Source of the DNA: an uncultured Enterobacteriaceae bacterium
Lineage (GTDB): Bacteria; Myxococcota_A; UBA9042
Length of the DNA stretch: 64,000 nucleotides
Assembly (NCBI GenBank): GCA_964447285.1
Contig: CAYURO010000018.1
Location: 20,522 to 84,521 of the forward strand
Direction of reading: 5' to 3'
Both the position numbers and the translations under genes were made by a program. Of this stretch, positions 23,425 to 52,277 are shown piece after piece. The notes below the pieces were generated by a model. The model searched no databases and was not told where the DNA came from. It saw nothing but the letters and a program-made list of their open reading frames with translations. Position 1 is the stretch's first letter. Each line of letters opens with the position of its first letter.

Positions 23425-25461
23425 ATGTCCGCCGCCGCCCCCAAGCCCTCACTGCGTCTCGGGTTTCGCCTGTTTCAACGGGCTCCGGCCAGTGTGGAGG
23501 AGGCCCAGCAGCACCCGCCGCTCGACATCGGGCCGGACCAGGTGCTCGAGATGGACGAGGCCGAGTGGTACGCAAAGGTCTATCGCGGCGAGGACGCCCC
23601 CCAGTTGACATGGCGCGCGGTGCTGGTGGGCTCGCTGCTGGGCTTTCTGCTTGCGTTCACCAACCTGTACATCGGCCTGAAGACCGGGTGGGCGCTGGGC
23701 GTGGCCATCACCGCGACCATCGTGTCGTATTCGCTGTGGTCGGTGCTGCAGCGGGTTGGGCTGGCAAAGGCGCCGATGACGATCCTCGAGACCAACTGCA
23801 TGCAGTCCACGGCCTCGTCCGCTGGTTATGCGACGGGTGGCACGATGGTGTCGGCGATTGCCGCGCTGCTGATGGTCTCGGGCCACCACCTGCCGTGGCC
23901 GGTCCTCGTCGCGTGGACGCTGCTGTTGGGGGCTCTGGGTACGGTCCTGGCCATCCCCATGAAACGCAACATGATCAACCGCGAACGCCTGCGCTTTCCC
24001 TCTGGCACCGCCGCCGCCGTGACGTTGCAGTCGCTGTACAGCAAGGGCGATGAGGCGCTGGCCAAGGCCCGGGCGCTGTTTTGGGCGGCGTTGGGCGGCG
24101 CGGTGGTGCCGCTGCTGATCGAGCTGCAGGTGCGCGAGACCGTCAGCGCGACGGGAGAGAAGGTGCGGTCGGCGCTGCTGCCCGCGGAGTCGGCGCTGTT
24201 CGACTGGCTGCCGGCGCTGGGCACCCACGCACACGAGGGCGGCGGCCAGGTGGCCAACAAGCCGTCGGACTGGACGATGGTGCTGGACCACAACCCCATC
24301 ATGATCGCCGCGGGCGCCCTGGTGGGGCTGAAGGTCGCGATTTGGATGACGTTGTCGGGGCTGTTCCTGGCGTACGTGCTGGGGCCGCTGGGGCAGGACG
24401 CGGTCTGGACGAACGGGCAGGGCGAGCTGGTCGCGGCCGTCACGGCCCCGGGCAAGGCTTGGAAGGAGATCGGCATTTGGTCCGGCGTGCCGATCATGGT
24501 CGCCTCGGGTCTGCTGATGTTCCTGTTGCAGTGGCGCACGATCCTGCGCGCTTTCCAAGGCTTGGGCAGCAGCGCGGTTGGCGGCACCGACGACCACATC
24601 GGCCGCACCGAGGTGCCGTTCTCGTGGTTCGCTTGGGGCGTCGTCCTCAGCGGCGGCGGCGTGGTGTGGCTGGCGCACGCGTACTTCGCGGTGCCGTTGC
24701 ACTACGGAGCGCTGGCCGTCGCGCTGACGTTCTTCCTGTCGCTGGTGGCTTGTCGCGCAACGGGCGAGTCGGACATCACGCCGGTGGGCGCGATGGGCAA
24801 GGTCATGCAGCTGACCTACGGCGTGCTGATCCCGCAGAACGCGACGGCCAACCTGATGACGGCCAGCATCACGTCCAGCTCAGCCGGCTCGGCGGCGGAC
24901 CTGCTGAACGACCTGAAGTCCGGGTATCTGCTGGGCGCCCACCCGCGACGGCAGTTCATGGCGCAGTTCATTGGCATCTTTTCGGGTACTGCGGCGACGG
25001 TCATGGGCTTCTACCTGCTGGTGCCCGATGCGGCCGCGCTGATGGGTTCGACGGCGGCCGACGGCACCGTCATCGCCCCCAAGTTCCCGGCGCCGGCGGC
25101 CCAGACGTGGAAGGCGGTGGCCGACGTGTTTCGGCACGGTCTGGGCAACATGCACCCCGTGCACCGTGAGGCGATTTTCTGGGGCCTTGGGTTTGGCGTC
25201 GTGCTGGTGGTGCTGGAACAGGTGTTCCCCAAGTGGCAGAAGTGGTTGCCGTCGGCCACCGGCATCGGTCTGGGGCTGATCCTGCCCTTTCAGTACCCGC
25301 TGTCGATGCTGGTCGGTGCCCTGATCGCATGGGGGTGGCAGGCGCGCAGCAAGGAGGGGGCAGAGCGGTACGTCGTGCCGGTCGCCTCGGGCATCATCGC
25401 GGGCGTGTCGATCGTCGGCGTCGTCGTGGCGGCGTTGAACAACTTGCTGTTCGCTCCCTGA
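23425..25461 (+). CDS. OPT-family oligopeptide transporter
   Basis: AGGAG Shine-Dalgarno. 678 aa with about 14-16 transmembrane segments. OPT-family layout and conserved Gly/Pro-rich transmembrane helices. Confidence 0.8.
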   Translation: MSAAAPKPSLRLGFRLFQRAPASVEEAQQHPPLDIGPDQVLEMDEAEWYAKVYRGEDAPQLTWRAVLVGSLLGFLLAFTNLYIGLKTGWALGVAITATIVSYSLWSVLQRVGLAKAPMTILETNCMQSTASSAGYATGGTMVSAIAALLMVSGHHLPWPVLVAWTLLLGALGTVLAIPMKRNMINRERLRFPSGTAAAVTLQSLYSKGDEALAKARALFWAALGGAVVPLLIELQVRETVSATGEKVRSALLPAESALFDWLPALGTHAHEGGGQVANKPSDWTMVLDHNPIMIAAGALVGLKVAIWMTLSGLFLAYVLGPLGQDAVWTNGQGELVAAVTAPGKAWKEIGIWSGVPIMVASGLLMFLLQWRTILRAFQGLGSSAVGGTDDHIGRTEVPFSWFAWGVVLSGGGVVWLAHAYFAVPLHYGALAVALTFFLSLVACRATGESDITPVGAMGKVMQLTYGVLIPQNATANLMTASITSSSAGSAADLLNDLKSGYLLGAHPRRQFMAQFIGIFSGTAATVMGFYLLVPDAAALMGSTAADGTVIAPKFPAPAAQTWKAVADVFRHGLGNMHPVHREAIFWGLGFGVVLVVLEQVFPKWQKWLPSATGIGLGLILPFQYPLSMLVGALIAWGWQARSKEGAERYVVPVASGIIAGVSIVGVVVAALNNLLFAP

Positions 25462-25566
25462 CCTGCATCCGACGGTGCCCAATCGTACTCCTACCCCCCC
25501 ATGCCGTTTGGGTCTAAGCTTCGGCATTCCACTGCGACCGTTGGGCCGCCCACCTTGGGGGACGTC

Positions 25567-27726
25567 ATGACGCCTGCTTGCACGACCATGTTCCGCACAC
25601 TTCGACGGGTTGCGTTGGGCGTTCTTGCGCCGCTGCTGCTGCCGACACTTGCGTCTGCCGCAGTGCCGACCACCGTGCTGCTCGAGGGGACGCTGCAGGC
25701 GACGGGCGGCGGTCCGGCGGCGGACGGCAAGTATCTGCTGAATCTGGCGATCTATCCCGATGCGCTGGGTGGTCAGGCGGCGTGGAGCGAGCAGGGCGCT
25801 GAAGCGTCGGTTCAGGGCGGCTTGTTCAGTCTCGCCATGGGCGCAAAGGTCCCGCTGAAGCCCGAGCTGCTGGCGGCGCTGTCCAAAGCCTATCTGGGCG
25901 TGACCGTGCAGCCGGACCCCGAGCTACCGCGGGTGCCGGTACACGCCGTTCTGTACGCGTTGCGCGCTGGCGTGGCGACGGGGATCGACTGTTCCGGCTG
26001 CATCCAGACCGCGCATCTGGATCCGCAGGTGTTGGCCCCTTATGCCAAGTCGGCCGATCTGGCGGCCTATGCCAAGACCGCGTCGTTGGCCACGGTCGCG
26101 ACCTCGGGGGCCTTCGCTGACCTGTCGGGCGGCCCGGACCTGAGTGCCTATGCGAAGACGGCCTCGCTGGCGACGGTTGCGACATCCGGCACATACGCAG
26201 ACTTGGAGGGATTGCCGACCCTTGCCAAGCTGGGCATCGCCTGCGGGACCGGCTTGGTGGTGCGCGGACTGAAGGCAGACGGCAGCTACGACTGCGTGCA
26301 GGCGATGGACCCCTTGGCGCTGCCCAAGGATGCGCTCGACGAGGTCTCGAACGGCCTGTTGACCAACCAGTTCAACGAGGTCGCCGCCAGCACGAAACTC
26401 GTCCCCATCCCCGACAACAGCCCCGTCGGCATCAGTGACGTGATCGACGTGCCGGACTTCGGCACTGCCCAGACGTTCAGCGTAGCCGCCGAGATCGCCA
26501 ACAGCGACACCGGAAATCTGCGGATCACGCTCATCGACCCCACCGGCACCAAGTTCGTCCTGTGGGACAAGACGGCCAAGGGCACCATCGTCAAGACGAC
26601 GTGGCCCACCCCGACCAAGACGGTGTCCGGCGACTTGAGTACATGGATCGGCAAGAACCCTAAGGGAAAGTGGTACTTAGAGGTAATTGACGTCGCCTTC
26701 TTGAACAACGGCTTCGACGGTGCCCTGAAGGGGTGGAGCCTGAACATCGGCGTCATGTCGTCTGCCAAGGTCGGGTTGGCTGGTCTGCTGAAGCTGCAGA
26801 ACGCCGCCGAGGCCCCGCTTCCGTGCGGTCCGACACTGGCCGGTTCGCTGTACTTCGACACAGTGGCCAAGGCCGTGCGCTATTGCGACGGGGCGGCTTG
26901 GCGCAACTTGGCCGACACGTGCGGCAACGGCATTCTCGACGCCACCGAGCAGTGTGACGACGGCAACAACACCGATGGCGACGGCTGCTCGGCCACCTGC
27001 CAGACCGTGTGCGGCGACGGCAAGTTGCTGGGCAAGGAAGAGTGCGACGACGGCAACACCAAGGATGGCGACGGCTGCAGCGCGGCGTGCATCGCGTCGG
27101 TCGGTTTCTCGAAGGTGCGACCGGGCGCCTCGTGCGCTGCCATCCTCGCTGCGTGGACCAGTGCGGGCTGGACGGCCAAGGACGGCAAGTACTGGCTCGA
27201 CCCGAATCTGGGCGACCCAGCCGACGCGTTCCTGGCGACCTGCGACATGACGCAGAAGGGCGGTGGCTGGACCAAGGTCAGCGAGTTCGCCGAGACGTAC
27301 TACGACAACCTCAGCGACCGCAGCAAGATCCCGTACAAGGAAGTGCTGGTCCTCGAGTGGGACCACACCACCGCGACCCCCGTCTACTCGAACTTTGTGG
27401 TCCAGCACGCCTGCTACAACTCGGCCAAGACCGGCTTCCAGGTTGCCAACACATCGGCGAACTGCGACTCGGGCTATCAGGTCCGGGTCGGTGGCACGGG
27501 CGGTTCGTGCGGCGACGCCGAGGACGGCTGCTTTGGCTTGTACTACGGCGACTTGGCCGTTGGCGGCGGGTGCAACTGGAACTGCGGCGCGGGTGCCGTG
27601 AAGATCTGGGGCAAGGGCTACGCCTGCAATTCGTGCCGCTGCCGCAACGCGCCATACACGACAATCGAAGGCTGCGGCAACGGCGGTGCGTGGGGCAACA
27701 AGCGCTTCTGGATCTACGTGCGCTAA
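25567..27726 (+). CDS. Secreted multidomain protein: signal peptide - conserved N-terminal domain - ~24-aa tandem repeats - P-like (proprotein convertase P) domain - two Myxococcus Cys-rich repeats - fibrinogen-related domain
   Basis: Signal peptide LLLPTLASAA. Repeats DLAAYAKTASLATVATSGAFADLSGGPDLSAY. P-domain-like GKNPKGKWYLEVIDVAFLNNGFDGALKGWSLNI. CGNGILDATEQCDDGNNTDGDGCSATC occurs twice. CDMTQKGGGWT is a fibrinogen C-terminal-domain hallmark. Confidence 0.7.
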   Translation: MTPACTTMFRTLRRVALGVLAPLLLPTLASAAVPTTVLLEGTLQATGGGPAADGKYLLNLAIYPDALGGQAAWSEQGAEASVQGGLFSLAMGAKVPLKPELLAALSKAYLGVTVQPDPELPRVPVHAVLYALRAGVATGIDCSGCIQTAHLDPQVLAPYAKSADLAAYAKTASLATVATSGAFADLSGGPDLSAYAKTASLATVATSGTYADLEGLPTLAKLGIACGTGLVVRGLKADGSYDCVQAMDPLALPKDALDEVSNGLLTNQFNEVAASTKLVPIPDNSPVGISDVIDVPDFGTAQTFSVAAEIANSDTGNLRITLIDPTGTKFVLWDKTAKGTIVKTTWPTPTKTVSGDLSTWIGKNPKGKWYLEVIDVAFLNNGFDGALKGWSLNIGVMSSAKVGLAGLLKLQNAAEAPLPCGPTLAGSLYFDTVAKAVRYCDGAAWRNLADTCGNGILDATEQCDDGNNTDGDGCSATCQTVCGDGKLLGKEECDDGNTKDGDGCSAACIASVGFSKVRPGASCAAILAAWTSAGWTAKDGKYWLDPNLGDPADAFLATCDMTQKGGGWTKVSEFAETYYDNLSDRSKIPYKEVLVLEWDHTTATPVYSNFVVQHACYNSAKTGFQVANTSANCDSGYQVRVGGTGGSCGDAEDGCFGLYYGDLAVGGGCNWNCGAGAVKIWGKGYACNSCRCRNAPYTTIEGCGNGGAWGNKRFWIYVR

Positions 27727-27756
27727 GCCAACCCGTTGCCTGGCAAAGGAATCTGC

Positions 27757-28665
27757 ATGTCCCTGGACCCGCTCTTCGAACCCGCCGCCGACCACTTTCT
27801 GGACCTGCAGACCCGCATCGTGGCCGCGCTAGAGGCTCTGGACGGGCACGCGACCTTTCACCGGGACGAGTGGACCCGGGACGAGTCTGAGGTGCCAGAC
27901 GGCCCGTCTCTGCGCGGCTGGGGACGCACCTGCGCCCTGGAGGGGGGCGCGGTGCTCGAGAAGGCGGGCGTGGCGTTCTCGAAGGTGCGCGGGCGGTTGG
28001 CCCAGGGACACGCCGAAGCGATGCCCGGCGATGGACTCGACTTCCAGGCGACGGGCGTGTCGCTCGTCTTGCACCCGCGCAATCCGCACGTGCCCATCGT
28101 GCACCTGAACTACCGGCGGCTCGCGCGAGGGGCGACGGCCTGGTTCGGGGGCGGCGCGGACCTGACGCCGTGCTATCTGGATCCGCAGGACGTGCAGCAC
28201 TTTCACGAGACCCACCGGCGCGTTTGCGAGCAGCACGCCCGCGTGGCCGACTGGCCGACGCTGCACCGCGACTGCGACGCGTACTTCTACCTGCCGCACC
28301 GGGGCGAGCGGCGCGGGGTCGGGGGCCTGTTCTTCGACCACATGGCGGCCAACCCGGAAGAGATGTTCGCGTTCGTCAAGGCCGTGGGCGACGCCTTTCT
28401 GCCCGCCTGGTTGCCCATCGCCCAACGCCACCGCGACGACCCGTACGGCGACCGCGAGCGGCAGTGGCAGCTGGTGCGCCGCGGGCGCTACGTCGAGTTC
28501 AACCTGGTGCACGACCGCGGGACGGTGTTCGGCCTGCGCACGGGCGGCCGCATCGAGTCGATCCTGATGTCGATGCCGCCCTTGGCCGCGTGGGGCTACG
28601 ACCTGCAGCCCGAGCCGGGTTCGCCCGAGGCCGTGATGCAGCAGGCGCTGGTGCGCCCCGCCTGA
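27757..28665 (+). CDS. hemF: Oxygen-dependent coproporphyrinogen III oxidase
   Basis: GGGADLTPCY, YVEFNLVHDRGTVFGLRTGGRIESILMSMPP and HRGERRGVGGLFFD are all HemF hallmarks. Confidence 0.9.
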   Translation: MSLDPLFEPAADHFLDLQTRIVAALEALDGHATFHRDEWTRDESEVPDGPSLRGWGRTCALEGGAVLEKAGVAFSKVRGRLAQGHAEAMPGDGLDFQATGVSLVLHPRNPHVPIVHLNYRRLARGATAWFGGGADLTPCYLDPQDVQHFHETHRRVCEQHARVADWPTLHRDCDAYFYLPHRGERRGVGGLFFDHMAANPEEMFAFVKAVGDAFLPAWLPIAQRHRDDPYGDRERQWQLVRRGRYVEFNLVHDRGTVFGLRTGGRIESILMSMPPLAAWGYDLQPEPGSPEAVMQQALVRPA

Positions 28666-28783
28666 CGTGTTCACCCCGGACGCCAAGGTCGCACCGCCGC
28701 CCGCCGACGTGGTACACCTGACCGGTCGGCGACCCACCATGGCCGGCCGGCCGCCCCCCCGTTTCCCCCGCACGGAGGTACAA

Positions 28784-30379
28784 GTGTCGACCTTCCTTTC
28801 GACCCGCCGCTGTTCGTTCATCGTCTTCCTTTCGCTACTTGCAGTGTCGGCCGGCTGCGGCTCGAGCTCGGGCGCAGGGGGCTACTACTACATTCCCGTG
28901 GATGCGGCGGACGGCACCGGATCCGACGGCAGCGACGCCGCCAATCCCGACGCCAACCCGGCCGATGCGAAGACCGACACGGTGGCCGACGTCACCGCCG
29001 ACGCGACCGACCTGGACGCCACCGAGACCCTCGACACGGTCGACGCCACCGACGTCCCGGACGGCACCGACACGACCGATGTCCCCGACACGACAGACGT
29101 CTTCGACACCACGGACACCACCGAGGTGCAAGACACGACCGATGCCGTCGACACCACCGACGTCGTGGACACCACCGACACGACCGACACGATGGACGTC
29201 CCCGACACGACCGACACGATGGACGTCCCCGACACCACCGACACGTCCGACACGACCGACGCCGCGGACACGACCGACACGACCGACGGCGTCGTGGGAC
29301 CTGCCTGCGCCCCCACGCCGAATATCGCCGGTCTGCTGCAGTGCCCCGAGGGCAAGGTCGACGTGACGCTGAAGGCCGCGACCGTCACCTACGTGTTCAA
29401 TGCCGGCTACTTCCTGGCCGACGAGAGCACCACCCACGGCATCGAGGTCTACGTCGGCACCACCTGGACGTACCCCAAGCCGGTCGTGGGCGACCGCGTC
29501 GACTTGCACCTGACCGAGTGGGGCAACTGGAAGAACCAGCAGGAGATCACGGCGGCCGACGCGCCCGTGGCCTTGGGCGTGGGCAACCCGGCCGTGTTCA
29601 AGCTGGACCTGCAGTCGCCCGGATCCGCCGGCGTGCTGGCCGAGACCCACGAGAGCCGCGAGGTGGGGGGCACGGGCCTGAAGGTGCTGACGGTGGCCGG
29701 CGCGGACCTGACCGTTGCGTCCAACGTGCTGCCCAACATGGTGTTTCGCGTCGACGGCACCAGCACTTTGTGCAAGGGAGCGGTCTTCGAGCTGAAGTCG
29801 GCCGTCATCACCCAATTCGGCGAGATCTATCGTGTGCAATTGATGAACGGTGCAGCAGACTTGGGCACCATCGATATCTCGGGCTGCACGCCTGACCCGA
29901 TCGACGAGACGCAGAACTGGGGCTTCGAAGACCTGGCCGCCACCGACCCGCCGGCGGGTTTCGTCAAGCTGACCGGTCTGTTCTCGGCCCTGCGCACCAC
30001 GACCGTCGCCCACGCCGGCGCGGCGTCTTGCGAACTGATCTGGACCTCGGACGCCAACCAGGACTTTACCACCGGCGCCTATGCCGAGATCCTGCCCGGC
30101 GACACGGTCAAATTCAGCTTCTGGGTGCTGGACGAGGATGTGGCGGGCCGTGTGCGGCCGGGGCTGCTGTTCTACAAGGCCGACAAGACGTTCTTGAAGT
30201 CAGAGTATGCCACGGGGTACTCGGTCGACGCGGCGGGGGTGTGGAACCAGCTCGCGCATACCTTCGTCGCTCCGGCCGACGCCGCGTTCGTGCGCGGGCA
30301 GGTGCGGATGTACGACGTGGCGCCCTTCCCGGGGTCGGCCAAGGTGCGCATCGACGACTGGAGCATCGGCAAGCAGTAG
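28784..30379 (+). CDS. Secreted lipoprotein with a long acidic Thr/Asp-rich linker and a C-terminal globular domain
   Basis: GGAGG Shine-Dalgarno then a GTG start. Lipobox AVSAGC. About 120 aa of TDTTDV-type low complexity. No family motif recognised in the C-terminal domain. Confidence 0.55.
   Translation: MSTFLSTRRCSFIVFLSLLAVSAGCGSSSGAGGYYYIPVDAADGTGSDGSDAANPDANPADAKTDTVADVTADATDLDATETLDTVDATDVPDGTDTTDVPDTTDVFDTTDTTEVQDTTDAVDTTDVVDTTDTTDTMDVPDTTDTMDVPDTTDTSDTTDAADTTDTTDGVVGPACAPTPNIAGLLQCPEGKVDVTLKAATVTYVFNAGYFLADESTTHGIEVYVGTTWTYPKPVVGDRVDLHLTEWGNWKNQQEITAADAPVALGVGNPAVFKLDLQSPGSAGVLAETHESREVGGTGLKVLTVAGADLTVASNVLPNMVFRVDGTSTLCKGAVFELKSAVITQFGEIYRVQLMNGAADLGTIDISGCTPDPIDETQNWGFEDLAATDPPAGFVKLTGLFSALRTTTVAHAGAASCELIWTSDANQDFTTGAYAEILPGDTVKFSFWVLDEDVAGRVRPGLLFYKADKTFLKSEYATGYSVDAAGVWNQLAHTFVAPADAAFVRGQVRMYDVAPFPGSAKVRIDDWSIGKQ
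28900..29300. repeat. Degenerate DNA repeats (gacaccaccgac / gacacgaccgat) encoding the D/T-rich linker
   Basis: Visible iterations of gacacgaccgacacgatggacgtccccgacac and similar units. They generate antisense ORFs rich in Ser/Val. Confidence 0.8.
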
Positions 30380-30411
30380 ACGGCAAGCGGACTTGCGTCG
30401 CGCATCCGATG

Positions 30412-31509
30412 TCACGCGCCCTTGCCCCCGCGGTCGCGCTCGCCCTTCTTCCAGCGGCGAATCTCGCGTGAGAGGTCCTTCTCCGAGGCCTTGCGCTCTT
30501 GGGCCTGCCGTTGGGCAAAGCGCGCGTCGGCCATCGCGACCTCGTCTCGCAGCGCCAGCCACGACTCCAGGCGAACCGCCGGCAATTCCCCTGACTCGAC
30601 GGCCAGTTCCAGTGCGCAGCCCGGGTCGCCGCGGTGGCCGCAGTCGCGGAATCGGCAACCCGACGCCAGCGCCTCGACGTCGGCAAAGGTCGCCGCCACG
30701 CCCGCCTCGGCGTCTACCAGTCCGAACTCGCGCATGCCGGGCGTGTCGATCAGCAGCAGCCCGTCGGGTCCCGGCAGCAGCTGTCGGCGCGTCGTGGCGT
30801 GCCGCCCGGTGTCGTCCGAGTCGCGCACCGGCAGCGTGGGCTGCACGTCGTCGCCCAGCAAGCGGTTGATCAGGGTCGACTTGCCCACGCCCGACGACCC
30901 GGCAAAGGCCACCGTGGCGTGGGGGGGGAGCACCGCGCGCAGGGCGTCGAGGCCACCCGACACCACCGCGCTGGTCAGGACCACCGGCACGCCTGGGACG
31001 GCTTCTTCGAGCTCGGCGCGCACCGCCACCGGGTCGTGGGCGCGGTCTGCTTTCGAGACGATCACGACGGCCTGGGCACCCCCCGCAAGCGCCGCGCTGA
31101 CGTACCGCTGCACCCGCCGGGCCGAGAAGTCCTCGCCCAACGCGGTCACCACCAACACGACGTCCACGTTGGCCGCGACAAGCTGGGGGGCGCTGGCCCG
31201 ACCCGGCGCCTTGCGCGCGAACATGCTGTGGCGGGGCAGCAACTGCTCGGCCACGTCGTCCAACCCCAGGCGCCGACACGCGATCCAATCGCCGACGGCC
31301 AGCGCGGGGTCCAGCCGCAGGACCAGCTTGCGTGGCTCCCACGGGTCGGGTGGCAATCCCAGGACCCGCACGCTGCCGCGGTCGACCGCGCACACCCGGG
31401 CGGGCAGCAGGTCGGGGGCGCCCAGGTCGTTCAGCGCGGCCGTCAGGCGCGGGGACCAACCCAGGGCAGTCAGGGCAAGGGGCATCGTCGGGGGGGATTC
31501 GGCAGCCAT
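30412..31509 (-). CDS. rsgA: Ribosome small-subunit-dependent GTPase A (RsgA/YjeQ)
   Basis: Circularly permuted GTPase order: G4-like VVLVVTALGEDF, then G1 GSSGVGKSTLINRL, then DTPG. C-terminal zinc motif CRFRDCGHRGDPGC. Confidence 0.85.
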   Translation of the reverse strand: MAAESPPTMPLALTALGWSPRLTAALNDLGAPDLLPARVCAVDRGSVRVLGLPPDPWEPRKLVLRLDPALAVGDWIACRRLGLDDVAEQLLPRHSMFARKAPGRASAPQLVAANVDVVLVVTALGEDFSARRVQRYVSAALAGGAQAVVIVSKADRAHDPVAVRAELEEAVPGVPVVLTSAVVSGGLDALRAVLPPHATVAFAGSSGVGKSTLINRLLGDDVQPTLPVRDSDDTGRHATTRRQLLPGPDGLLLIDTPGMREFGLVDAEAGVAATFADVEALASGCRFRDCGHRGDPGCALELAVESGELPAVRLESWLALRDEVAMADARFAQRQAQERKASEKDLSREIRRWKKGERDRGGKGA

Positions 31510-31594
31510 GGCGCGACGCTACGAATGCCCGCGGCGCTCGTCAACCCGGGTCGCCTCTGCAAGACCGCCCGCCGGACCCGGGGCAGGGCAGCCA

Positions 31595-31663: not shown

Positions 31664-34600
31664 TCAGTAGATGCCCTTGGCGTTCGCACCGCCGAAGCCG
31701 TATGCGTCTACGGCCTCGCGCAGGTAGAACGGCACTTCGGTATACTGTCCCAGCTTCATGCACGCCTTGTTGTGCACGCACTTGCACCCGCTGTTGTCCG
31801 TGGCAGAGCAGCCCGCGATGGGGCCACCGTTCACGTTCTCCATCGAGGGGTCGTACTTCACCAGGGCCTCGCCGGTCTTGTCGCTGTAGACGGGCTCGTA
31901 CCAGTCGGGAATGCCGTCACCGTCCTGGTCGGGGCCGGGCGTCGTCTGGTAAGCGTCTTTCAGCAGCGAGTTGGCGTATTCGAGCACGCGCGCGGCGATG
32001 CCCTTCTCGACCGTGCGGCCGAAGATGGTCTCGCGGCCGATGCGCCGGGCGACGTAGATCTTGCCGATCGGGTTATGGAACTCGATGCGCGCCTTGATGC
32101 CCGGGTCGGAGTCCTTGCCGAGCTCCCAGATGCGCATCATGTCCATCCAGCCCTGCTGCGCGTTCTCTGGCAGGTACAGCATCGTCCAGGCGATCAGGAA
32201 CTTCTGCTGCTCCCAGCCCACCTGCGGGTCGACCACGGCCGTCTTGACGGGGGCCACGGCACCAAAGGGCTTGTCGTCGGTCGAGCCATAGGTCGTGCAG
32301 ACGGTGCTGTTCTGCGCCGGGAAGCAACTGGTGGGCTGCATGCCGAACCACGTCGTCCAGCCAAAGCCCATCGTCGGGAACTTCTGGGTGTCGATCAGCG
32401 GCTTGCCGTTGGCGCCGGCGGCAAGGCGCGGGCCCTTCAGGAAGTCGTCGCCGGTCAGTTGGTTGGCAAGCAGGCGGCGGAAGCCGTCCGGGAAGAGGTC
32501 TGCCAGCGAGGCTGAGCGGTAGCGAGCGTCGACGAAGTCGCCGAGGGACGAGCTGATGAAGTTGTCGACCGATTCGGTCATCAGCATCGAGATGTACATC
32601 TTGTCGTAGTACGAACCCGCATTCAGCGTGTACTGCGAGTCGTACTCGCCCTTGTCGCTGGCCAGTTGGTTCTCGACCGGGCGACCGCCGTAGGTGACCT
32701 GACCGAAGTAGCCCGTTGCGCCATTCGGAACGACTACCGTGACGGTCGCCGGCGAGCTGCTCATCTTCGATTCCATCGACCTCAGCACGCCATTCGCGGC
32801 GTCGGCGAAGTGCTCGCCTGCCTCTGGACGCGCCAACTGCTTGGCGAAGTGGTCAAACACGATACCCGAGGCCAGCACGTTGTCGGGGAAGAACGACTTG
32901 GCGGCATAGGCCCACAGCTCGTCCGGATCCGCGCCCACTTCAAGCGCGACGTCCCGGTAGATATTGCGGTACAGGGCCAAGCCCTTGGCGCCGTCGCGCA
33001 GCTTCTCGTTGAAGCGGGTCAGCGCGCGGTTCGCGGCGCCGCGGACCGAGAAGCTCTTTCGGCCGCGACGGTAGTTGTCGAAGATGTGGCCTACTTCCTG
33101 CTGGGTGATCATGAACCCGAAGATCTCGTAGGGATCCGCACCGTTATCGTGGCGGTACACGCTCAGGTTGCCCAGGTCGGCCCAGTTGTCGGTCGCGAAG
33201 CCATAGGGCACACGCTGGCGCTTCTGGGGGTCCACAGCAACGCCACCGCGGTAACCGCCCGTCGGCAGTTCGTTCGTCGCCGGCGCGCGCAGGCTGGTCC
33301 AGGGCACGTAATCGACCTTCTGCTGGCGGCAGCGGGTGTATCTCTCGTCAATCTTGACGATCAGGCCGTCGAGCAGGGGCGAGAAGGAACCGTCGGTCGC
33401 CTCGTTCCAGCGCGCCGGCTTGAACTTCAGGGGGTCGACCTCTTGGCAGTCCTTGATCAACTCGAAGCCCGTGTTCAGCGCCGAGTAATGGATGTCTTTG
33501 GACCCAAGGCTGAAAGTCAGGCCGAGGATGCCACCGAAGTTGTCGGTCTTGCCCAGCATGGCCTTGCCGCGTGGTGTGCCGGCCTTGTAGGTGTCGTCGG
33601 CGTACACGGCCACCGAGTCGCCGTACAGCATGCGCGTCGCGGCAAAGTCGTACACGCCAAGACCCAGGAAGTCCTGAGTGGTCTCGCCGGCATAGTCCAT
33701 GATCGACGACTGCTGCCACATCCAGATCAGGTTGTCGCGCTCCTCCTTGGTCACCGGGTCGAAGTAGCGCGGGCCGACGCACGTCGAGCCGTCGGGAGCC
33801 AGCGCCTTGCAGTCGGTCTTGACCTTGCCGTTCTTGGTGCGGAGCTGCCAGTACTGCGGGCGGAAGCCGGTCGCGTCGGAGGAGCTGATGAAGTTGTGGC
33901 GCAGACCGATGCTGTGTCCCATTTCGTGCGCGATGACCGCGTAGTGGGCGCGGCGAGCGACGTAGTCGCGCATCTTCTCTGCGCGCGCCTGCTGAACTTC
34001 CGGCGGCTGGGTCGGGTCGAACTGGCCAAACTTCTCCTGCAGCACGTCTGCAAGGCCGGCGATGCTCAGCGGTGCCTCAGCCATCTGCATGATGCACATG
34101 CCCCGCTCGGCCAGGGCGGTCTCCTTCATGCGGCGCAACTCGCGCTGAACCGCCGGGTTGCCGCCACGCAGCGGCGAGGCGATGTCCAACACGGCCTGGC
34201 CCAGCGGCATCCCCACCATGCCGGCAAGCACCTGGACGGCGGGCGTGATCAGCGAGGCCTCGAACAGCGTTCCCATCGCCATCTGGCGGCGGGCGGCGTA
34301 GGTGGGCGCCATGGCCGAAGCGACCTTTGCGGAGGCGGTCACTTCCTTCAACTGATGCTTCAGGTCCACGGCGGCCTGAACCGCTTCGGGGTGCTGCTGC
34401 TCGAAGGCGGCGGCACGCTCGGCGTTCATGTCGATGCCTTCAGACTGGGCGGTGCGCGCGTTGAATTCTTCAGCCGTCAGGCGGGGAAGCAGGCCGTTGG
34501 CAGAGGCGGCACGGGCGGCCTCGGACCAGTCTTTGATGTACTTGCCCTCGGTGATGCTCTCGGCCTTCAGCTCGCCAGCGATATAGCGAGCCTGGTCGAC

Positions 34601-36559
34601 GACGCCCTGACTCCAGAGGTCGTTGACGTACGTCCACGCGTTGATGCTGGCGGCGATGGTCTCGCCAGTCAGCGGGTCGTTCGAGTCGACCATGATGCCC
34701 CAGGGCGACGGCGTCTGCGGTTCGGGAAGGCCATTGACCTGGTGGTAGCGCAGGTCGCCGCGGCGGACGTTCAGGGCCTTGGCGCACACCGCCAGCGTCT
34801 CGGTGTCGCCGTCGACGCGGGCCGTCTCGCACTTGTCCGCGGTCCAGCCGATCGGCAGGCGCTCGGCCGTCTTGGCGCACCCGATGGGGTCGCCCAGCTC
34901 GACGGGGCTGTGGCACAGGACGATCATCTCGGGCATCTTCGCGATCGCCTTGACGCCGTCGGTATAGCCGCGCTCTGTCCCCACCGTGTCGGCCAGGTTC
35001 TGGCACAGCAGCTCGTTGCGACCCAACTGCGCGTAAGCACGGCTGTTGCGGCAGTCGTCGACTTCCATCGCCAGCGCGACGGCATCACCGTTGTCGTCCT
35101 GCTGGCCGTCGTACACAGGGAACTGCGTATCGCACTTGGCGTACTCGGCAACCAGGTCCACCGCGGCCCCGCCGTCGGGAACAGTGGCGCTCGCTCTGGC
35201 TTGGGCAACGCGCTTGCACTCACCGAGCTGCGACGACCGGATGGCGACGCGCAGGGCGATGTCCCATTCGTGGGTGGCCTGCTCCGTGGCCTCGAAGTAC
35301 TTCAGGTTGCTGCCACCGGTGTAGTACCACGCGACCGGCTTGGCCAGGCGCTGGGTCAAGGGCAGGGTGCAGCGCTGCTTGAACGTGTCGCAACGAGATC
35401 CGTTGCCAACGGAAGCGCACTCGTCTTCGGTGCCGTCCTGGTTCAGGTCGCGGTGCGGGTCCTGGCCATACTTGGTGGTCTCGGGGGTATAGCAGGCGAC
35501 CGGACCGCCCTTGGGGTCCTGGAACGTCGTGGGCGTCGAGGTCGGCTTGCCGCTGGCGTCCAGCTTGTAGTACGCGTGGCTCTGCTCCCAGATGTTGTAA
35601 TAGTTCAAGAAGCGGTACCACTTGGCGTCGGTCATGCCGTAGTTGCGCGTGTATCCCGACCGCTCGGTGGTGAAGCCGCCAAACGCCTGAAAGCGAAAGC
35701 CGTCCCAGTCGCGGGGTTCGAAGTCGGTGACCACGACGCGGCGGAAGGCATGGCGGACGGTGAGCTCGATGGGGTTGCACGAGCCCGCGGGCGCGGTGCC
35801 GCCGGCAAAGTCGGCCTCGAGGAAGCAGGCAGGGAACGTGTCGATGCCCCAGCCCAGGTGGCTGAGATCGACGACGCCCGGCTTGGCGAACGCCTTGCTG
35901 GTGATGTCGAAGTAGCTGTTGTCTTTGGCGAAGTACGGGGCATTCGGGTCGTTCGGGTCCTGGACGTTGTACGCCATGGGCTCGTACTGCACGCCGCCGT
36001 AGATGCCGACCATCGACAGGGTGTCGAAGTCGTAGCTATCCACGTTCTGGTTCTTCGACCAGTCGATCCGCATGTGGGTGCGCTGGTACCAAGGGCGGTC
36101 GTAGTTGTTCTCCTCGAGGATGTTCATCTCCTCGCCCGTGGTGGAGTTGTACGACCGCTTGATGTCGAAGTGCGACTCGATGCGGAACGCGCAGACGATC
36201 ACGCCGTCCTGCGTCGCCTTGCCCAGGCCCTTGCCGTCCGAGCCCTCGATGCGCTCGTAGGCGAGGCGGCCGATCAGCAGCCCTTCGGTGATCTGCCACT
36301 TGATACGCGACACCGGCTGCGCATAGGTCGACGTGAACAGGCCGTCCTGCGACGCGCCGTAGCCGACGTCGATCAGGGTGGCCTGCGCCCAGAATTCCGG
36401 GTCGTCAGCGGTGCTGACCAGGTCCTTGCCGACGAACAGGGTCTTGTCGAGCGCCCAGGGCTGGACGCGGTCGATCGGGGCACGCTCCTCGGCACAACTG
36501 GCGGAAAAGGCCGAAAGGGCGAGCAGCAGGAACAGGGGGGCGCGAAGGGCGCGGAACAT
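31664..36559 (-). CDS. Giant secreted or lipo-anchored zinc metalloprotease-like protein (HEXXH zincin), about 1632 aa
   Basis: Signal peptide with lipobox FSASC. Zincin motif VIAHEMGHSIGLRHNF near residue 1000. The rest resembles no family I can name. Confidence 0.7.
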   Translation of the reverse strand: MFRALRAPLFLLLALSAFSASCAEERAPIDRVQPWALDKTLFVGKDLVSTADDPEFWAQATLIDVGYGASQDGLFTSTYAQPVSRIKWQITEGLLIGRLAYERIEGSDGKGLGKATQDGVIVCAFRIESHFDIKRSYNSTTGEEMNILEENNYDRPWYQRTHMRIDWSKNQNVDSYDFDTLSMVGIYGGVQYEPMAYNVQDPNDPNAPYFAKDNSYFDITSKAFAKPGVVDLSHLGWGIDTFPACFLEADFAGGTAPAGSCNPIELTVRHAFRRVVVTDFEPRDWDGFRFQAFGGFTTERSGYTRNYGMTDAKWYRFLNYYNIWEQSHAYYKLDASGKPTSTPTTFQDPKGGPVACYTPETTKYGQDPHRDLNQDGTEDECASVGNGSRCDTFKQRCTLPLTQRLAKPVAWYYTGGSNLKYFEATEQATHEWDIALRVAIRSSQLGECKRVAQARASATVPDGGAAVDLVAEYAKCDTQFPVYDGQQDDNGDAVALAMEVDDCRNSRAYAQLGRNELLCQNLADTVGTERGYTDGVKAIAKMPEMIVLCHSPVELGDPIGCAKTAERLPIGWTADKCETARVDGDTETLAVCAKALNVRRGDLRYHQVNGLPEPQTPSPWGIMVDSNDPLTGETIAASINAWTYVNDLWSQGVVDQARYIAGELKAESITEGKYIKDWSEAARAASANGLLPRLTAEEFNARTAQSEGIDMNAERAAAFEQQHPEAVQAAVDLKHQLKEVTASAKVASAMAPTYAARRQMAMGTLFEASLITPAVQVLAGMVGMPLGQAVLDIASPLRGGNPAVQRELRRMKETALAERGMCIMQMAEAPLSIAGLADVLQEKFGQFDPTQPPEVQQARAEKMRDYVARRAHYAVIAHEMGHSIGLRHNFISSSDATGFRPQYWQLRTKNGKVKTDCKALAPDGSTCVGPRYFDPVTKEERDNLIWMWQQSSIMDYAGETTQDFLGLGVYDFAATRMLYGDSVAVYADDTYKAGTPRGKAMLGKTDNFGGILGLTFSLGSKDIHYSALNTGFELIKDCQEVDPLKFKPARWNEATDGSFSPLLDGLIVKIDERYTRCRQQKVDYVPWTSLRAPATNELPTGGYRGGVAVDPQKRQRVPYGFATDNWADLGNLSVYRHDNGADPYEIFGFMITQQEVGHIFDNYRRGRKSFSVRGAANRALTRFNEKLRDGAKGLALYRNIYRDVALEVGADPDELWAYAAKSFFPDNVLASGIVFDHFAKQLARPEAGEHFADAANGVLRSMESKMSSSPATVTVVVPNGATGYFGQVTYGGRPVENQLASDKGEYDSQYTLNAGSYYDKMYISMLMTESVDNFISSSLGDFVDARYRSASLADLFPDGFRRLLANQLTGDDFLKGPRLAAGANGKPLIDTQKFPTMGFGWTTWFGMQPTSCFPAQNSTVCTTYGSTDDKPFGAVAPVKTAVVDPQVGWEQQKFLIAWTMLYLPENAQQGWMDMMRIWELGKDSDPGIKARIEFHNPIGKIYVARRIGRETIFGRTVEKGIAARVLEYANSLLKDAYQTTPGPDQDGDGIPDWYEPVYSDKTGEALVKYDPSMENVNGGPIAGCSATDNSGCKCVHNKACMKLGQYTEVPFYLREAVDAYGFGGANAKGIY

Positions 36560-36596
36560 CGAGGACCTCCCGGACGGGCGAGACGAAATGGCGGGG

Positions 36597-37637
36597 CTAG
36601 AAGAGCTCCGCGGGGGCGATCTGCAAATTGAGGTACAGATTCGTGAAACGATTGAAGAAAACCGATTGGTAGGTCGAATCTGGCGCGAGCTGGCTGTTGA
36701 CCGTCTGGGCGCCCAGCGACACATTCACCACATCCGTGATGTCCCACGACGCCTCGACCACGTAGACCATGGTCACGCGCTGCGACGGGTCGTTGGGGTC
36801 CGGCTCGACGGTGTAGGTCGTGCCTTTTGCGGTGCCGAGGGCGTAGAGCTGGTCGGCGTGCACTCCCGCGGTGCCGGTAACGGCCACGGACGATACGGGC
36901 GTCCACGTCGCGTTGGCCAAGCCGGTCCAGCGCCACTCGGGGTTGCGCAGGCCGGTGTGCGAGAACTGTGAGCAGCCGCTGGTCAAGTCGGCGCAACCCA
37001 CGACCCACGGCGAGTCGAGCTGGCCGGTCGTGTACTCGTGCGCCATGTAGGTGCCGCGGCCGGTCAACGACAGCTGCAGGCCCTGGCCGGCGAAGCGTGA
37101 GCTCCATGCGGCCGTGACGCCCAGCGACGGGGCAATGATGAGCGAGCGGGCTGCCGACGCCTTGCTGGTGGGCAGGTTCACGCCCAGGTCCGAGGACACC
37201 GACAGGCCGGTGGGGGTCACGGCGTCAGGCAACAAGATCGCATAGCGGGCGCCCAGTTGCGTGTCACCGACCATGGTCTCACCTTGGTAGGTGGTCCAGT
37301 CGCTCTGGGTCAACTCGCGCGAGAGGCTGCTGGATGCGTTGAAGCGCACGCGGCGGCTCAGGGTGTAGCGGACGGTGGCGCTCAGCGACATCTCGACGTT
37401 CGGATTCCAGGTCGGGTCCGCAGCCTTGTCCAGTCCGATCGCGAGGACGTCGGTTCGCAGGCTGACGTCGGAGCCGCGGAAGTTGGCCGCGATGCCGGGA
37501 TCGTCAACGGGCACCGCCACCGCCGTCACTGCATCCTCCGCCGCCGCCGAGGCGGGCCGAGCAAGCATTCCGATGAGGAGGAGCAGGAGGGGCAAGCTCA
37601 GGCAGGGAGAGCAGAGCGGACGAAGAGACCGTGGCAT
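36597..37637 (-). CDS. Outer-membrane beta-barrel protein, likely co-transcribed with the downstream zincin gene
   Basis: Signal peptide LLLLLIGMLARPASAAA. Alternating amphipathic strands. C-terminal ...IAPAELF with terminal Phe is a classic OMP signature. 37 bp upstream of the zincin start. Confidence 0.6.
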   Translation of the reverse strand: MPRSLRPLCSPCLSLPLLLLLIGMLARPASAAAEDAVTAVAVPVDDPGIAANFRGSDVSLRTDVLAIGLDKAADPTWNPNVEMSLSATVRYTLSRRVRFNASSSLSRELTQSDWTTYQGETMVGDTQLGARYAILLPDAVTPTGLSVSSDLGVNLPTSKASAARSLIIAPSLGVTAAWSSRFAGQGLQLSLTGRGTYMAHEYTTGQLDSPWVVGCADLTSGCSQFSHTGLRNPEWRWTGLANATWTPVSSVAVTGTAGVHADQLYALGTAKGTTYTVEPDPNDPSQRVTMVYVVEASWDITDVVNVSLGAQTVNSQLAPDSTYQSVFFNRFTNLYLNLQIAPAELF

Positions 37638-48509: not shown

Positions 48510-48824
48510 TCTCTCCGGCTACCGACGCAGCGCCGCCGACCGCGTGAGCCGACCATGACTCACGCGGCCTGCGGTGTGCCTCGCCTGCACTGGTCTTCTC
48601 CGATTCGGCCTTTCATCGGCCGATCGACTGACCGTCGCCAAGCCGCGGAAACACGCGCGGGTCACGGCATCCAAACCGCCGGCAGGACTGTCGCAAAGCC
48701 TTCTGGTTCGCTATACTTCGCGCCCACTTCCGCGCCCACGTGCGGAGCTTGAGTCGTCGCAACGCACCTACGCGGCCACGGCGACTGGACACCCTCAACT
48801 CTTGTGTTTCATCGAGGCTCTGCC

Positions 48825-50885
48825 ATGAGGACGACCGCAACCCGCTTCTCCGTTCCCTGCGCGCTCGCGCTTGCCTGTCTTTGGTTTGCGGTTCCGGCCG
48901 CAGCCCTCGTGCCCACCACGGTTGGGGTAGAGGGGCTACTGCTGTCGTCCGGTGGTGGTCCGGCGGCAGATGGCGACTATGCGGTGACCTTCGCCATCTA
49001 CAAGGACGTCAGCGGCGGAGCCGCCGTGTGGTCGGAAGGCCCAGTGACGCTGACCGTGAAGAGCGGGCAGTTCGTCCACGCGTTGGGCAGCAAGACGGCG
49101 CTGACCCAGCAGGTCCTTGCCACCGCCGGCGCTCAGTCGTTCTTGGGGGTGCGGGTGGGCATCGACCCCGAGTTCGCTCGCAAGCCGCTGAATTCAGTGA
49201 CCACAGCGCTGCGGGCGGCTGTGGCTGAGAACATCGACTGCTCCGGCTGCATTGGCTTGGGGCAGCTGGATGCCACCGCATTGGTCGATTACGCCAAGGT
49301 TGCCGACCTCTCCAAGGTGGCGACCACGGGCAAGTTCTCTGACCTGCAGGGGGGGCCGGACCTGTCCGCGTACGTCAAGATGGTTTCGCTTGCGACCGTC
49401 GCGCTGTCGGGGGCGTATGCCGACCTGTCCGGCATCCCCGACCTGTCGGTCTATGCGAAGTCCGCAGCCCTGCACAAGGTCGCTACGACGGGCAAGTATG
49501 CAGATCTGGTGGATGCGCCGGTGCTGGCGGCGGTGGCGAAGTCGGGCTCGTACAAGGACCTGATCGACCAGCCGACGCTGCCCAAGCTGGGCGACAAGTG
49601 CGGCACCGGCCTTGTGATGCGCGGCATTCTGGCGAACGGCGCCTACGACTGCGTGGTTGCGCTCGACCCGGCGGCTCTGCCCGGCGACGGCCTGAACGAG
49701 ATCTCCAATGGCCTGATCACCAATGAGTTCGCAGACTCAGCCAGCGGCGGCACGGGTGTGAAGATCCCCGACAACAGCCCGGTCGGTGTGTCCGACATCA
49801 TCGACTTTCCCGACGTGGGCTTGGCCAAGAAGCTGACGATCAACATCGACATCACCAATTCCAAGATCAACACCGTGACCGTGTACCTCTACGACCCGGC
49901 GAATCAGGAGTACGTCCTGCACCAGAAGTCGAGTTCAGGCACCAGTCTGAAGACCGGTTACCCAACCCCGACCAGCACGGCGTCGGGCGACCTGAGCACT
50001 TGGCTTGGCAAGAATCCCAAGGGCAAGTGGTTCCTGAAGGTTGTGGACAACGACTTCCTCAACAACACGACAGACGGTCAGATCAACGCCTGGTCGATTT
50101 CGATCGAGACGCTGTCCAGCAAGAAGGTTCAGGTCAAGGGCGACCTGCTGGTGGACGGTGGCATCAAGGTCGGCGCCGACGCGACGGCGTGCACGGCCGC
50201 GAAGGCTGGCACGCAGCGATACGCCAACGACCGGATCGAGTACTGCAACGGATTGGTTTGGCTACCGGTCGGCGCTTCCGGGGCGACGTACCGCTGGGCC
50301 GTTTGGTCCAGCTACGACCAGAGTTGCTGCTGGTTCGGCGCTGGCGGTAACGGCAACGCGGCGCTGTTCGGCGGCGTGACTCCGCAGGCTTGGGGTGATG
50401 GCAGCGGTTTTGCGGGTCAGATGAGTGCCGACAAGGAAGTGCTGCGGACCCTGTTTACGAACAAGGGCTACGCCCAGAAGAACGCGACGGTGTGGGCCGA
50501 GTCCTGGTACACCTACAGCTCAACCAACTCCAAGCACGCGGGAGCGTTGTTCCGCATCCGCAATACCACGGGCTCCGCCATCACTTGGACGCCCTACGCG
50601 TACATGACGTCCTACGCGGGCTGGGGCAACTACGCGAGCGTGGCTCTAAACGGTACCAGCATTTGGAACAGCGGCGGCAACAACTACTACTCGAATTCGA
50701 CCTTCAGTTGGAACCTGTCGATCCCAGCGAACCGCGTCAGCACGGCGATCTTCATCTCAGCCAACACGGCACCGTCCGGCACGGCGACCACGTTCCTCGC
50801 GTTCTACAACAACAGCTTGGCGCTTCCGGCCGGTTTGGTGTTCGTGGACGATATGGACTTCGCGACAGGTGGCTGGGAGCAGTAG
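48825..50885 (+). CDS. Secreted paralog of the 25567..27726 protein: same N-terminal domain, ~24-aa repeats and P-like domain, but a different C-terminal domain (Trp/Tyr/Asn/Ser-rich, lectin-like)
   Basis: Signal peptide ALALACLWFAVPAAA. About 45-50% identity to the paralog over the first ~420 aa (VPTTV..GGGPAADG..; GKNPKGKWFLKVVDNDFLNNTTDGQINAWSISI). C-terminal domain has no Myxo Cys repeats or FReD. Confidence 0.7.
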   Translation: MRTTATRFSVPCALALACLWFAVPAAALVPTTVGVEGLLLSSGGGPAADGDYAVTFAIYKDVSGGAAVWSEGPVTLTVKSGQFVHALGSKTALTQQVLATAGAQSFLGVRVGIDPEFARKPLNSVTTALRAAVAENIDCSGCIGLGQLDATALVDYAKVADLSKVATTGKFSDLQGGPDLSAYVKMVSLATVALSGAYADLSGIPDLSVYAKSAALHKVATTGKYADLVDAPVLAAVAKSGSYKDLIDQPTLPKLGDKCGTGLVMRGILANGAYDCVVALDPAALPGDGLNEISNGLITNEFADSASGGTGVKIPDNSPVGVSDIIDFPDVGLAKKLTINIDITNSKINTVTVYLYDPANQEYVLHQKSSSGTSLKTGYPTPTSTASGDLSTWLGKNPKGKWFLKVVDNDFLNNTTDGQINAWSISIETLSSKKVQVKGDLLVDGGIKVGADATACTAAKAGTQRYANDRIEYCNGLVWLPVGASGATYRWAVWSSYDQSCCWFGAGGNGNAALFGGVTPQAWGDGSGFAGQMSADKEVLRTLFTNKGYAQKNATVWAESWYTYSSTNSKHAGALFRIRNTTGSAITWTPYAYMTSYAGWGNYASVALNGTSIWNSGGNNYYSNSTFSWNLSIPANRVSTAIFISANTAPSGTATTFLAFYNNSLALPAGLVFVDDMDFATGGWEQ

Positions 50886-52101: not shown

Positions 52102-52277
52102 CTGCTTCATCGACCCGGCGCACGCTGTTCTCCAGCGATGGCGACAGGTTGGGCGTCGAGTTGTTGCAGGCCGACTGCTCAGGACTCAGGCGCGCTGGTT
52201 GCGATGCGCAGGCATCTCCGATACCTTCATATTCACTATTCAGGCGTTTCGAAGGCGGGTCGTGCGCCGTGGAGCGG

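Follow-up and report, generated by a model that had tools for sequence, protein, structure and literature searches.

What is a fibrinogen-like tail doing at the end of a bacterial protein? Fibrinogen-related domains (FReDs) and intelectin domains have been known, with few exceptions, as lectins of animal innate immunity and the extracellular matrix, and such a tail is carried by the product of a gene at positions 25567-27726 of the stretch analysed here (64,000 nucleotides of contig CAYURO010000018.1, hereafter the window). We think it probable that this product, 719 amino acids (aa) long, is a Sec-exported, non-enzymatic recognition protein, whose scaffold presents a C-terminal head of the FReD superfamily that binds a ligand, the likeliest being a glycan. 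The gene is real, conserved and functional, and the architecture of its family is already catalogued (i.e., by an NCBI curated motif model and product name), the locus being an ortholog of deposited proteins. Two things go beyond that label: a radiation of about 25 paralogs per genome, with heads ranging from bona fide FReD through intelectin-like to orphan, and the Cys/Gly-rich head of the present protein, which the structural model suggests to be a distinct variant of the FReD/intelectin fold.

The C-terminal head

The head (residues 515-719) opens with the fibrinogen A-subdomain signature, Cys...G.Y.I.P......F.VYCDM...GGGWT, including a conserved Cys pair that could form a disulfide: C523 never varies in the two family alignments, A1 and A2, and C559 never varies in A2 and hardly does in A1. 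The NCBIfam model NF040941 (GGGWT_bact) matches residues 522-570 over profile positions 1-45 of 46 (E 2.1e-10, 40.4 bits vs a cut-off of 30), which makes the protein a direct member, and close homologs bear the corresponding NCBI product name; the model itself is confined to a 46-residue motif and is silent about the function, the scaffold and the head beyond that motif. Pfam Fibrinogen_C (PF00147) gave no match to the 719-aa protein even at E<=10, and the fibrillar collagen C-propeptide model (COLFI, PF01410) stays below its gathering score (22.4 bits, or 24.0 for the isolated head, vs 26.2), with a match limited to profile positions 25-69 of 233. Nine of the 15 members of the head subfamily do match PF00147, as do 46 of 64 relatives by scaffold, in most cases within profile positions ~2-58.

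The relatives of this first module were sought in two ways. A profile of 15 full-length heads of the subfamily (alignment A3), compared with the PDB, matched XEEL/intelectin (1.1e-7), fibrinogen beta (1.4e-6), tachylectin-5A (1.8e-6), tenascin (4.5e-6), FIBCD1 (9e-6), angiopoietins, and the C-propeptides of collagens I and III (6e-6 to 7e-5; collagen I 6.4e-6), always within the first ~55 positions. A word-indexed search with the head alone returned only four matches, and the search was therefore made exhaustively with HMMER, residues 515-719 being compared with 1.84 billion cluster representatives; it found 443 clusters at E<=0.001, nearly all over the first ~55 residues, the whole 205-residue head being matched by 13 of the 150 clusters listed. 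A PDB search with the single sequence gave marginal hits to tenascin (E 0.1) and, through the Cys-rich repeats that precede the head, to pappalysin (E 0.011). Judged by the significant similarity of the sequences, the N-terminal module of the head is homologous to that of the FReD/intelectin/collagen C-propeptide superfamily.

Past GGGWT the picture changes. The last 147 residues, with 10 Cys and 22 Gly, show no detectable sequence relative outside the small subfamily, and the P-subdomain motif of FReDs, NCA..GGWWY..C..NLNG, is absent from residues 573-719, both by regular expression and on reading the sequence. Profile-profile alignment of the head with canonical-FReD and intelectin-like heads of its own paralogs covers only 53-57 columns, the hhalign comparison with the canonical ones (alignment A4) stopping at 53. 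The FReD label that the sequence-only reading had put on the C-terminus is thus sound for the first ~55 residues, with their fibrinogen-type signature and NF040941 match, and is not borne out by PF00147 or by the P-subdomain motif. Of the other families that it had invoked, P_proprotein (PF01483) is there, and so are the myxo Cys-rich repeats, which in Pfam are matched by DUF4215 (twice).

How the rest of the head folds can be judged from prediction. The full-length AlphaFold2 (AF2) model, built on an 82-sequence family alignment, broke down over residues 576-710 (pLDDT 29-45), since the heads of that alignment cannot be aligned with one another, and a re-prediction of residues 505-719 with the 15-sequence subfamily alignment reached a mean pLDDT of 81.3 and a pTM of 0.85. 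In the fold comparison this model scored 7.4 with ficolin-3, 7.3 with the collagen I C-propeptide, 7.3 and 6.8 with fibrinogen beta chains, 7.2 with FGL1, 7.1 with ANGPTL3, and 6.7 and 6.5 with fibrinogen/fibrin gamma chains. No more than ~58 residues precede GGGWT, which places at least 80 of the aligned residues beyond it, and the predicted central sheet and the closing strand RFWIYVR (pLDDT 96) would therefore follow the topology of the superfamily. The head is accordingly best described as a predicted FReD-superfamily fold, nearest to intelectin, in which the ligand subdomain has been replaced, and not as a canonical FReD; the P subdomain has probably given way to the Cys/Gly-rich region, stapled by disulfides. 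A fold unrelated to fibrinogen, which would have told against any FReD assignment, is not what the prediction gives, ficolin-3, fibrinogen and ANGPTL being among its matches.

The head differs from both of its best known counterparts. Intelectins and other X-type lectins (human intelectin-1, Xenopus XEEL, lamprey LSVL) are ~280 aa long, against ~205 aa here, and similarity to them is not detectable past GGGWT; among its paralogs, those of the P0021 type resemble intelectin far more closely. Canonical FReDs (ficolins, tachylectin-5A, FIBCD1, tenascin, angiopoietin) belong to PF00147 and have a P subdomain with its motif and a Ca2+ site, where this head has its Cys/Gly-rich region; they also sit on a collagen or coiled-coil stalk, whereas the present protein is bacterial and built on a P-domain scaffold.

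The gene and its scaffold

The open reading frame (ORF) from the ATG at 25567 to the stop codon at 27724-27726 has exactly 719 codons, on the plus strand and at the coordinates originally proposed. A longer frame from 25501 is not needed to account for the gene; the start at 25567 is accepted because a GGGGGA Shine-Dalgarno-like run lies 5 nt upstream of it and the ortholog P0001 (719 aa, 94% identical) begins at the equivalent position. The exact protein sequence has no record in the public assemblies looked up. The peptides that the sequence-only reading had quoted are both in the translation (GASCAAILAAW...GGGWTKV at residues 520-571 and GKWYLEVIDVAFLNNGFDGALKGWSLNI at residues 367-394), and its claim of secretion agrees with a signal peptide, MTPACTTMFRTLRRVALGVLAPLLLPTLASA followed by AVP, in which an RTLRR n-region, a hydrophobic core and an ASA-AV cleavage motif can be recognized by eye, with no lipobox Cys. 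Equivalent hydrophobic N-termini, followed by A-(A/I/V)-P, are found in 40 homologs. Residues 8-23 of the signal peptide are modelled as a helix, and its ratio of nonsynonymous to synonymous substitution rates (dN/dS) is relaxed, at 0.7 vs 0.08 for the whole protein.

The features of the gene, and of a paralog located in the same window, are collected in Table 1. Outside the signal peptide, the full-length AF2 model is confident over residues 34-125 (pLDDT 81-97), 226-445 (85-98) and 510-575 (86-92). The first of these regions is a beta-sandwich that is conserved in all 120 of the top homologs and also heads other scaffolds (e.g., P0129, P0134 and P0153). A conserved CSGC motif (residues 142-145) lies between it and the P-domain region, and is followed by the two 27-aa units, ending in SGxF/YADL, which are the 'repeat' domain of the earlier description. 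Family members have 2-5 copies of this SGxYxDL repeat, with four copies of the motif in the paralog; the repeats match phage families of unknown function (phrog_30808, E 4e-7, and phrog_17509), are modelled as low-confidence helices, and could possibly be a stalk or an oligomerisation segment.

Table 1. Features of the 25567-27726 gene and of its paralog in the window.
Feature	Positions	Strand	Residues	Basis
Complete coding sequence, secreted multi-domain protein, 719 aa + stop	25567..27726	+	1-719	ORF; ortholog-supported start
Sec-type signal peptide	25567..25659	+	1-31	reading by eye
N-terminal beta-sandwich, without family name	25666..25941	+	34-125	AF2 pLDDT 81-97, all-beta
Two tandem 27-aa repeats, DLxAYAKTASLATVATSGxF/YADL	26044..26205	+	160-186, 187-213	sequence
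Disulfide hairpin (C226, C243) and P-domain jelly roll	26242..26766	+		PF01483; AF2 pLDDT >90; Foldseek
Disulfide 'knuckle', C420...GSLYFDT...RYCDGAAW, C440	26809..26907	+	415-447	alignment; AF2
Two cysteine-rich acidic repeats (myxo disulfide repeat/DUF4215), spacer	26908..27108	+	448-514	TIGR02232; DUF4215
Fibrinogen-type N-terminal module (A subdomain + first core strand), C523, C559, CDM..GGGWT	27109..27282	+	515-572	NF040941; profile vs PDB
Subfamily-specific Cys/Gly-rich rest of head, ending in strand RFWIYVR	27283..27723	+		predicted FReD/intelectin-like beta core
Paralog, 693 aa	48804..50885	+		tblastn; ORF; PF01483 38.9 bits

The P-domain is beyond reasonable doubt. PF01483 matches residues 302-394 (26470-26748) with 40.1 bits (E 4.1e-10; gathering score 21) over 85 of its 86 positions (2-86), and in a Foldseek search of the full model against the PDB the top 27 matches are furin, Kex2 and the Aeromonas protease ASP, with E ~1e-5 and prob 1.00 over ~150 columns (e.g., furin 1p8j, E 8.8e-6, prob 1.00; Kex2 1ot5, E 3e-5). 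The non-catalytic module that these three have in common is the P-domain, and the segment therefore belongs to that family by both profile score and furin/Kex2-like jelly roll. What accompanies it in those proteases is missing: Pfam and NCBIfam detect no Peptidase_S8/subtilase or other protease domain in the 719-aa protein, none was seen in those neighbouring genes that were scanned, and in the AF2 model the N-terminal side of the P-domain is occupied by beta-sandwich, repeats and hairpin instead of an S8 catalytic domain. The orphan state of the P-domain, as first proposed, is thereby upheld. A kexin/furin-type convertase, considered as a possible identity of the protein, is ruled out, there being no S8 domain N-terminal to the P-domain.

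The knuckle that follows has its two cysteines invariant in 82 family members and is modelled with three short strands at pLDDT ~90; its counterpart in the paralog reads QRYANDRIEYCNGLVW. The myxobacterial Cys-rich repeats, also named from the start, are matched twice by TIGR02232 (myxo_disulf_rpt; E 7.5e-21, 73.7 bits vs a cut-off of 20.8) and twice by DUF4215 (E 2.5e-10, 40.9 bits vs 27), and their number varies across paralogs between 0, 1 and 2. No C-terminal sorting tag was found in the NCBIfam scan at E<=10, which returned TIGR02232 and NF040941 only.

One scaffold, many heads

The combination of P-domain and fibrinogen-like head had been supposed to be rare, and this is where the first impression has to be corrected. 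With the whole protein as query, over 4,900 proteins score E<=0.001; virtually all come from metagenome-assembled genomes (MAGs) of Myxococcota, under such names as 'fibrinogen-like YCDxxxxGGGW domain-containing protein', 'proprotein convertase P-domain-containing protein' and 'cysteine-rich repeat protein'. In 64 members scanned, P_proprotein is present in 63, COLFI in 55, Fibrinogen_C in 46 and DUF4215 in 29, i.e., a P-domain with a fibrinogen-like head is the standard of the family. The further remark that such proteins are not well described in bacteria is true of their function, full-text literature searches having found no paper on a bacterial GGGWT/P-domain family, and untrue of their architecture, for which the NCBI has a curated model and a product name.

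What varies in the family is the head. All of the top 120 homologs have the N-domain and the P-domain and 119 have the repeats; any part of the present head is found in 43 of them, and the entire head in two. A scan of species-representative genomes located 94% identical orthologs in two freshwater MAGs (Loc090721-8m_bin-517 and Deming_bin.407), which hold at least 24 and at least 20 paralog loci, respectively, including several tandem pairs; more copies occur in lake MAGs from Baikal, Umea and Zurich. Among 18 paralogs of bin-517 with GGGW-type heads, compared by BLASTP, the scaffolds are all mutually detectable (median identity 58%) and the 54-aa module before GGGW is nearly as well kept (51%), whereas the regions after it (143-219 aa) are undetectable to one another in 148 of 153 pairs. 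The census of heads in this genome counts one paralog of the present Cys/Gly-rich type, one canonical FReD, three intelectin-like heads and about 14 of other, unique GGGW types, in addition to seven paralogs without a GGGW motif, two of them short ORFs. The canonical type (P0058, P0044, P0119) matches tenascin-R/ficolin-3 over nearly the whole domain (E 1.5e-14) and keeps the motif NCA..WWY..C..ING, and the intelectin-like type (P0021) matches intelectin-1 up to position ~128 (E 2.8e-10).

The paralog within the window shows the same division on a small scale. It is 47% identical to the 719-aa protein over residues 20-445 (i.e., signal peptide, N-domain, repeats, P-domain and knuckle) and ends in an unrelated head of ~207 aa, rich in W, Y, N and S and closing with GGWEQ; neither Pfam, other than PF01483, nor NCBIfam matches any part of this paralog. 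This head type recurs in bin-517 and Deming. The Cys/Gly-rich head, in turn, is also found on other scaffolds, among them Ig-repeat proteins and short proteins, and therefore acts like a mobile module.

Further members of the wider group deserve mention. In P0023 (795 aa) the GGGW module is directly followed by an ALK/LTK glycine-rich domain (PF12810, residues 578-774, E 8.1e-26), otherwise known from animal receptor tyrosine kinases. Five giant proteins of 3,100-4,900 aa (P0130-P0133 and P0142) carry 6-15 separate copies of the ~55-aa GGGWT module, which is therefore also a tandem repeat unit detached from the full FReD. At least 10 family copies (L018, L045-L048, L050) belong to a MAG named 'uncultured Enterobacteriaceae bacterium binchicken_co141_175', a label that looks wrong given the otherwise myxococcotal distribution of the family.

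Differences between heads do not mean that heads are changing fast at present. Compared with either ortholog, the gene as a whole has a dN/dS of 0.08 and the subfamily-specific part of the head one of 0.05; each head is stably conserved under purifying selection, and the diversity lies between old paralogs and not in ongoing hypervariation. Hypermutation or an arms race at the time scale of orthologs was considered and is rejected by the value of 0.05, no systematic search for a reverse transcriptase having been made. A separate observation concerns residues 401-514 (26767-27108), the knuckle and Cys-rich repeats, where the synonymous divergence (dS) from both orthologs is 0.06-0.11, compared with 0.35-0.63 in most other domains and 0.20-0.44 in the GGGWT module; this suggests either recent recombination or gene conversion at the junction of scaffold and head, or constraint at the nucleotide level.

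Gene order is kept in both orthologous loci from about 19.6 kb of the window onwards, as histidine kinase, OPT transporter, the 25567-27726 gene and hemF; a scan of 25300-27900 for promoters and terminators found no sigma-70-like promoter and no intrinsic terminator. Next to hemF, the operon partner of the gene, both orthologous loci have ~74 bp where the window has ~2.9 kb (28667-31580), which encode a 570-aa protein with a lipoprotein-like N-terminus, long D/T-rich TDTTD repeats and no Pfam match, together with an RsgA GTPase gene on the minus strand. Farther on, a 1,686-aa ORF (31664-36724, minus strand), whose sole Pfam match is a short met-zincin motif (DUF4953, 25.7 bits), may encode a large secreted metalloprotease, and a protein of 1,074 aa with Cys repeats of the Dictyostelium type (Dicty_CTDC, E 1.5e-12), encoded at 51786-55010 on the plus strand, 0.9 kb downstream of the paralog, is probably another Cys-rich secreted protein.

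Proposed recognition by the head, and other readings

The function that we favor for the 719-aa protein can be put together as follows. The protein would be exported by Sec and probably reach beyond the periplasm, where N-terminal beta-sandwich, SGxYxDL repeats, P-domain jelly roll, knuckle and Cys-rich spacer may together form a scaffold, possibly oligomeric, that presents the head. The head, which appears to retain the disulfide-clamped N-terminal module of the superfamily and, in the prediction, its central beta-sheet, would bind a specific extracellular ligand, likeliest a glycan on another microbe or in the extracellular matrix, because the characterised relatives of the sister heads that can be classified (ficolins, tachylectin-5A, FIBCD1 and intelectins) are lectins. 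The ~25 paralogs per genome, with different heads on one scaffold, could then be a repertoire of binding specificities.

Lectin-like binding of a ligand by the head is the most likely of the readings considered here, and several points weigh against it. The head lacks the motif of the canonical FReD Ca2+/ligand pocket, and the Ca2+/ligand site of intelectin could not be mapped onto the head by profile-profile alignment. The head model was built on 15 sequences, is weakest (pLDDT 49-79) over model residues ~125-200, where the binding site would lie, and has modest TM-scores to intelectin (0.40-0.45). FReDs bind proteins too, as in angiopoietin-Tie2, tenascin and the knobs of fibrinogen, so that the fold does not imply a glycan. 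The genes around it (histidine kinase, OPT transporter, HemF, RsgA) have housekeeping or regulatory roles and give no functional clue, and predation by the source lineage, an uncultured organism, is assumed from knowledge at the level of the phylum only.

Binding of proteins is indeed the essence of the best surviving alternative, which we hold to be rather unlikely. Here the head would drive protein-protein assembly, after the manner of collagen C-propeptide trimers or of the angiopoietin and tenascin FReDs that bind protein receptors, and the family would serve to assemble or cross-link a surface layer or an extracellular matrix. The COLFI match, however, represents a shared 45-residue N-terminal module and stays under its gathering score, the sister heads are of lectin types (ficolin/tenascin-like and intelectin-like), and a structural role leaves unexplained why ~25 paralogs should have heads, and heads alone, diverged beyond recognition.

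The scaffold offers another alternative, of still lower probability. The P-domain is the most conserved named module of the family (63 of 64 members), every solved structure that it matches has it in a subtilase, and in furin and kexin it stabilises the catalytic domain; one could imagine the orphan P-domain docking or chaperoning a separately encoded subtilase, which the head would then target to the surface of a substrate. The classical role itself is closed to it: the P-domain is shared with the kexin/furin convertases and Aeromonas ASP, but no S8 domain was detected in or beside the 719-aa protein, and the P-domain therefore cannot stabilise a fused protease. As for a protease encoded apart, no subtilase adjoins either the gene or its paralog at 48804-50885, and P-domains that stand alone are frequent among the proteins secreted by bacteria.

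The conservation of the N-terminus and the high variability of the C-terminus, in many paralogs per genome and some tandem pairs, also recall polymorphic toxins, where exchangeable toxic domains ride on a delivery scaffold as in Rhs and contact-dependent inhibition (CDI) systems. This we regard as very improbable and have rejected: none of Pfam, NCBIfam and PHROGs reports a domain of toxin, nuclease, peptidase or pore-forming type, those heads that can be classified have lectin folds, and hemF, which comes immediately downstream in conserved synteny, is a housekeeping gene and not a small immunity gene; nor are Rhs, PAAR or type VI secretion genes among the neighbours scanned. Least credible of all is that a piece of an animal fibrinogen or intelectin gene was recently acquired and has no adapted function in bacteria, for although characterised FReD and intelectin domains are overwhelmingly animal (as are all the PDB matches), 'recent' is effectively refuted by the composition of the gene (GC 66%, and 0.85 at third codon positions, like its neighbours and the host genome), by orthologs in two other MAGs with conserved synteny and a dN/dS of 0.08, by the deep paralog radiation within the lineage, and by the spread of the GGGWT module over 443 bacterial 50%-identity clusters.

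For a recognition protein of the kind that we favor, bacterial parallels exist. In TraA, a surface recognition protein of Myxococcus xanthus, a variable lectin-like domain is joined to Cys-rich repeats of the myxobacterial type; the variable domain of TraA is PA14-like and N-terminal and the protein ends in a MYXO-CTERM sorting tag, whereas in the present protein the variable head is C-terminal and no sorting-tag model was seen. The mosaic adhesive trimer (MAT) fibres of Bdellovibrio form a set of 21 paralogs with similar N-terminal parts, whose C-terminal tips, with C-type lectin and TNF-like folds, were exchanged in evolution, one member having been shown to bind glycans of the prey surface (PMC10769870). 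Similar N-terminal parts with variable, lectin-type tips are what the two families have in common; the likeness is one of function and architecture, and homology is not claimed. The tip of the MAT fibre is carried by an intertwined trimeric beta-helix/beta-prism; our model, of a monomer, shows no beta-helix.

Taken further, and only tentatively, since we hold this wider proposal to be somewhat doubtful, freshwater planktonic Myxococcota might carry a bacterial counterpart of the animal ficolin/FREP/intelectin repertoire: ~25 secreted proteins on one scaffold with radiated heads of the fibrinogen superfamily (canonical FReD, intelectin-like, ALK-glycine-rich-like and orphan), each for a different microbial surface glycan, serving the recognition of prey or partners and convergent with the MAT fibres, the head described here being a new ligand-site solution on the FReD core. 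The value lies in this picture of the family, the 25567-27726 gene alone being a catalogued, uncharacterised member. A bacterial lineage has fitted a conserved secreted scaffold with tips of the FReD/intelectin fold superfamily, in some two dozen versions per genome. If the heads are glycan receptors, they would be a tractable set of natural lectin specificities and a second, independent example, after the MAT fibres, of how predatory bacteria recognise diverse targets, and the family would add data on the origin of the FReD/intelectin fold and on the direction of its transfer.

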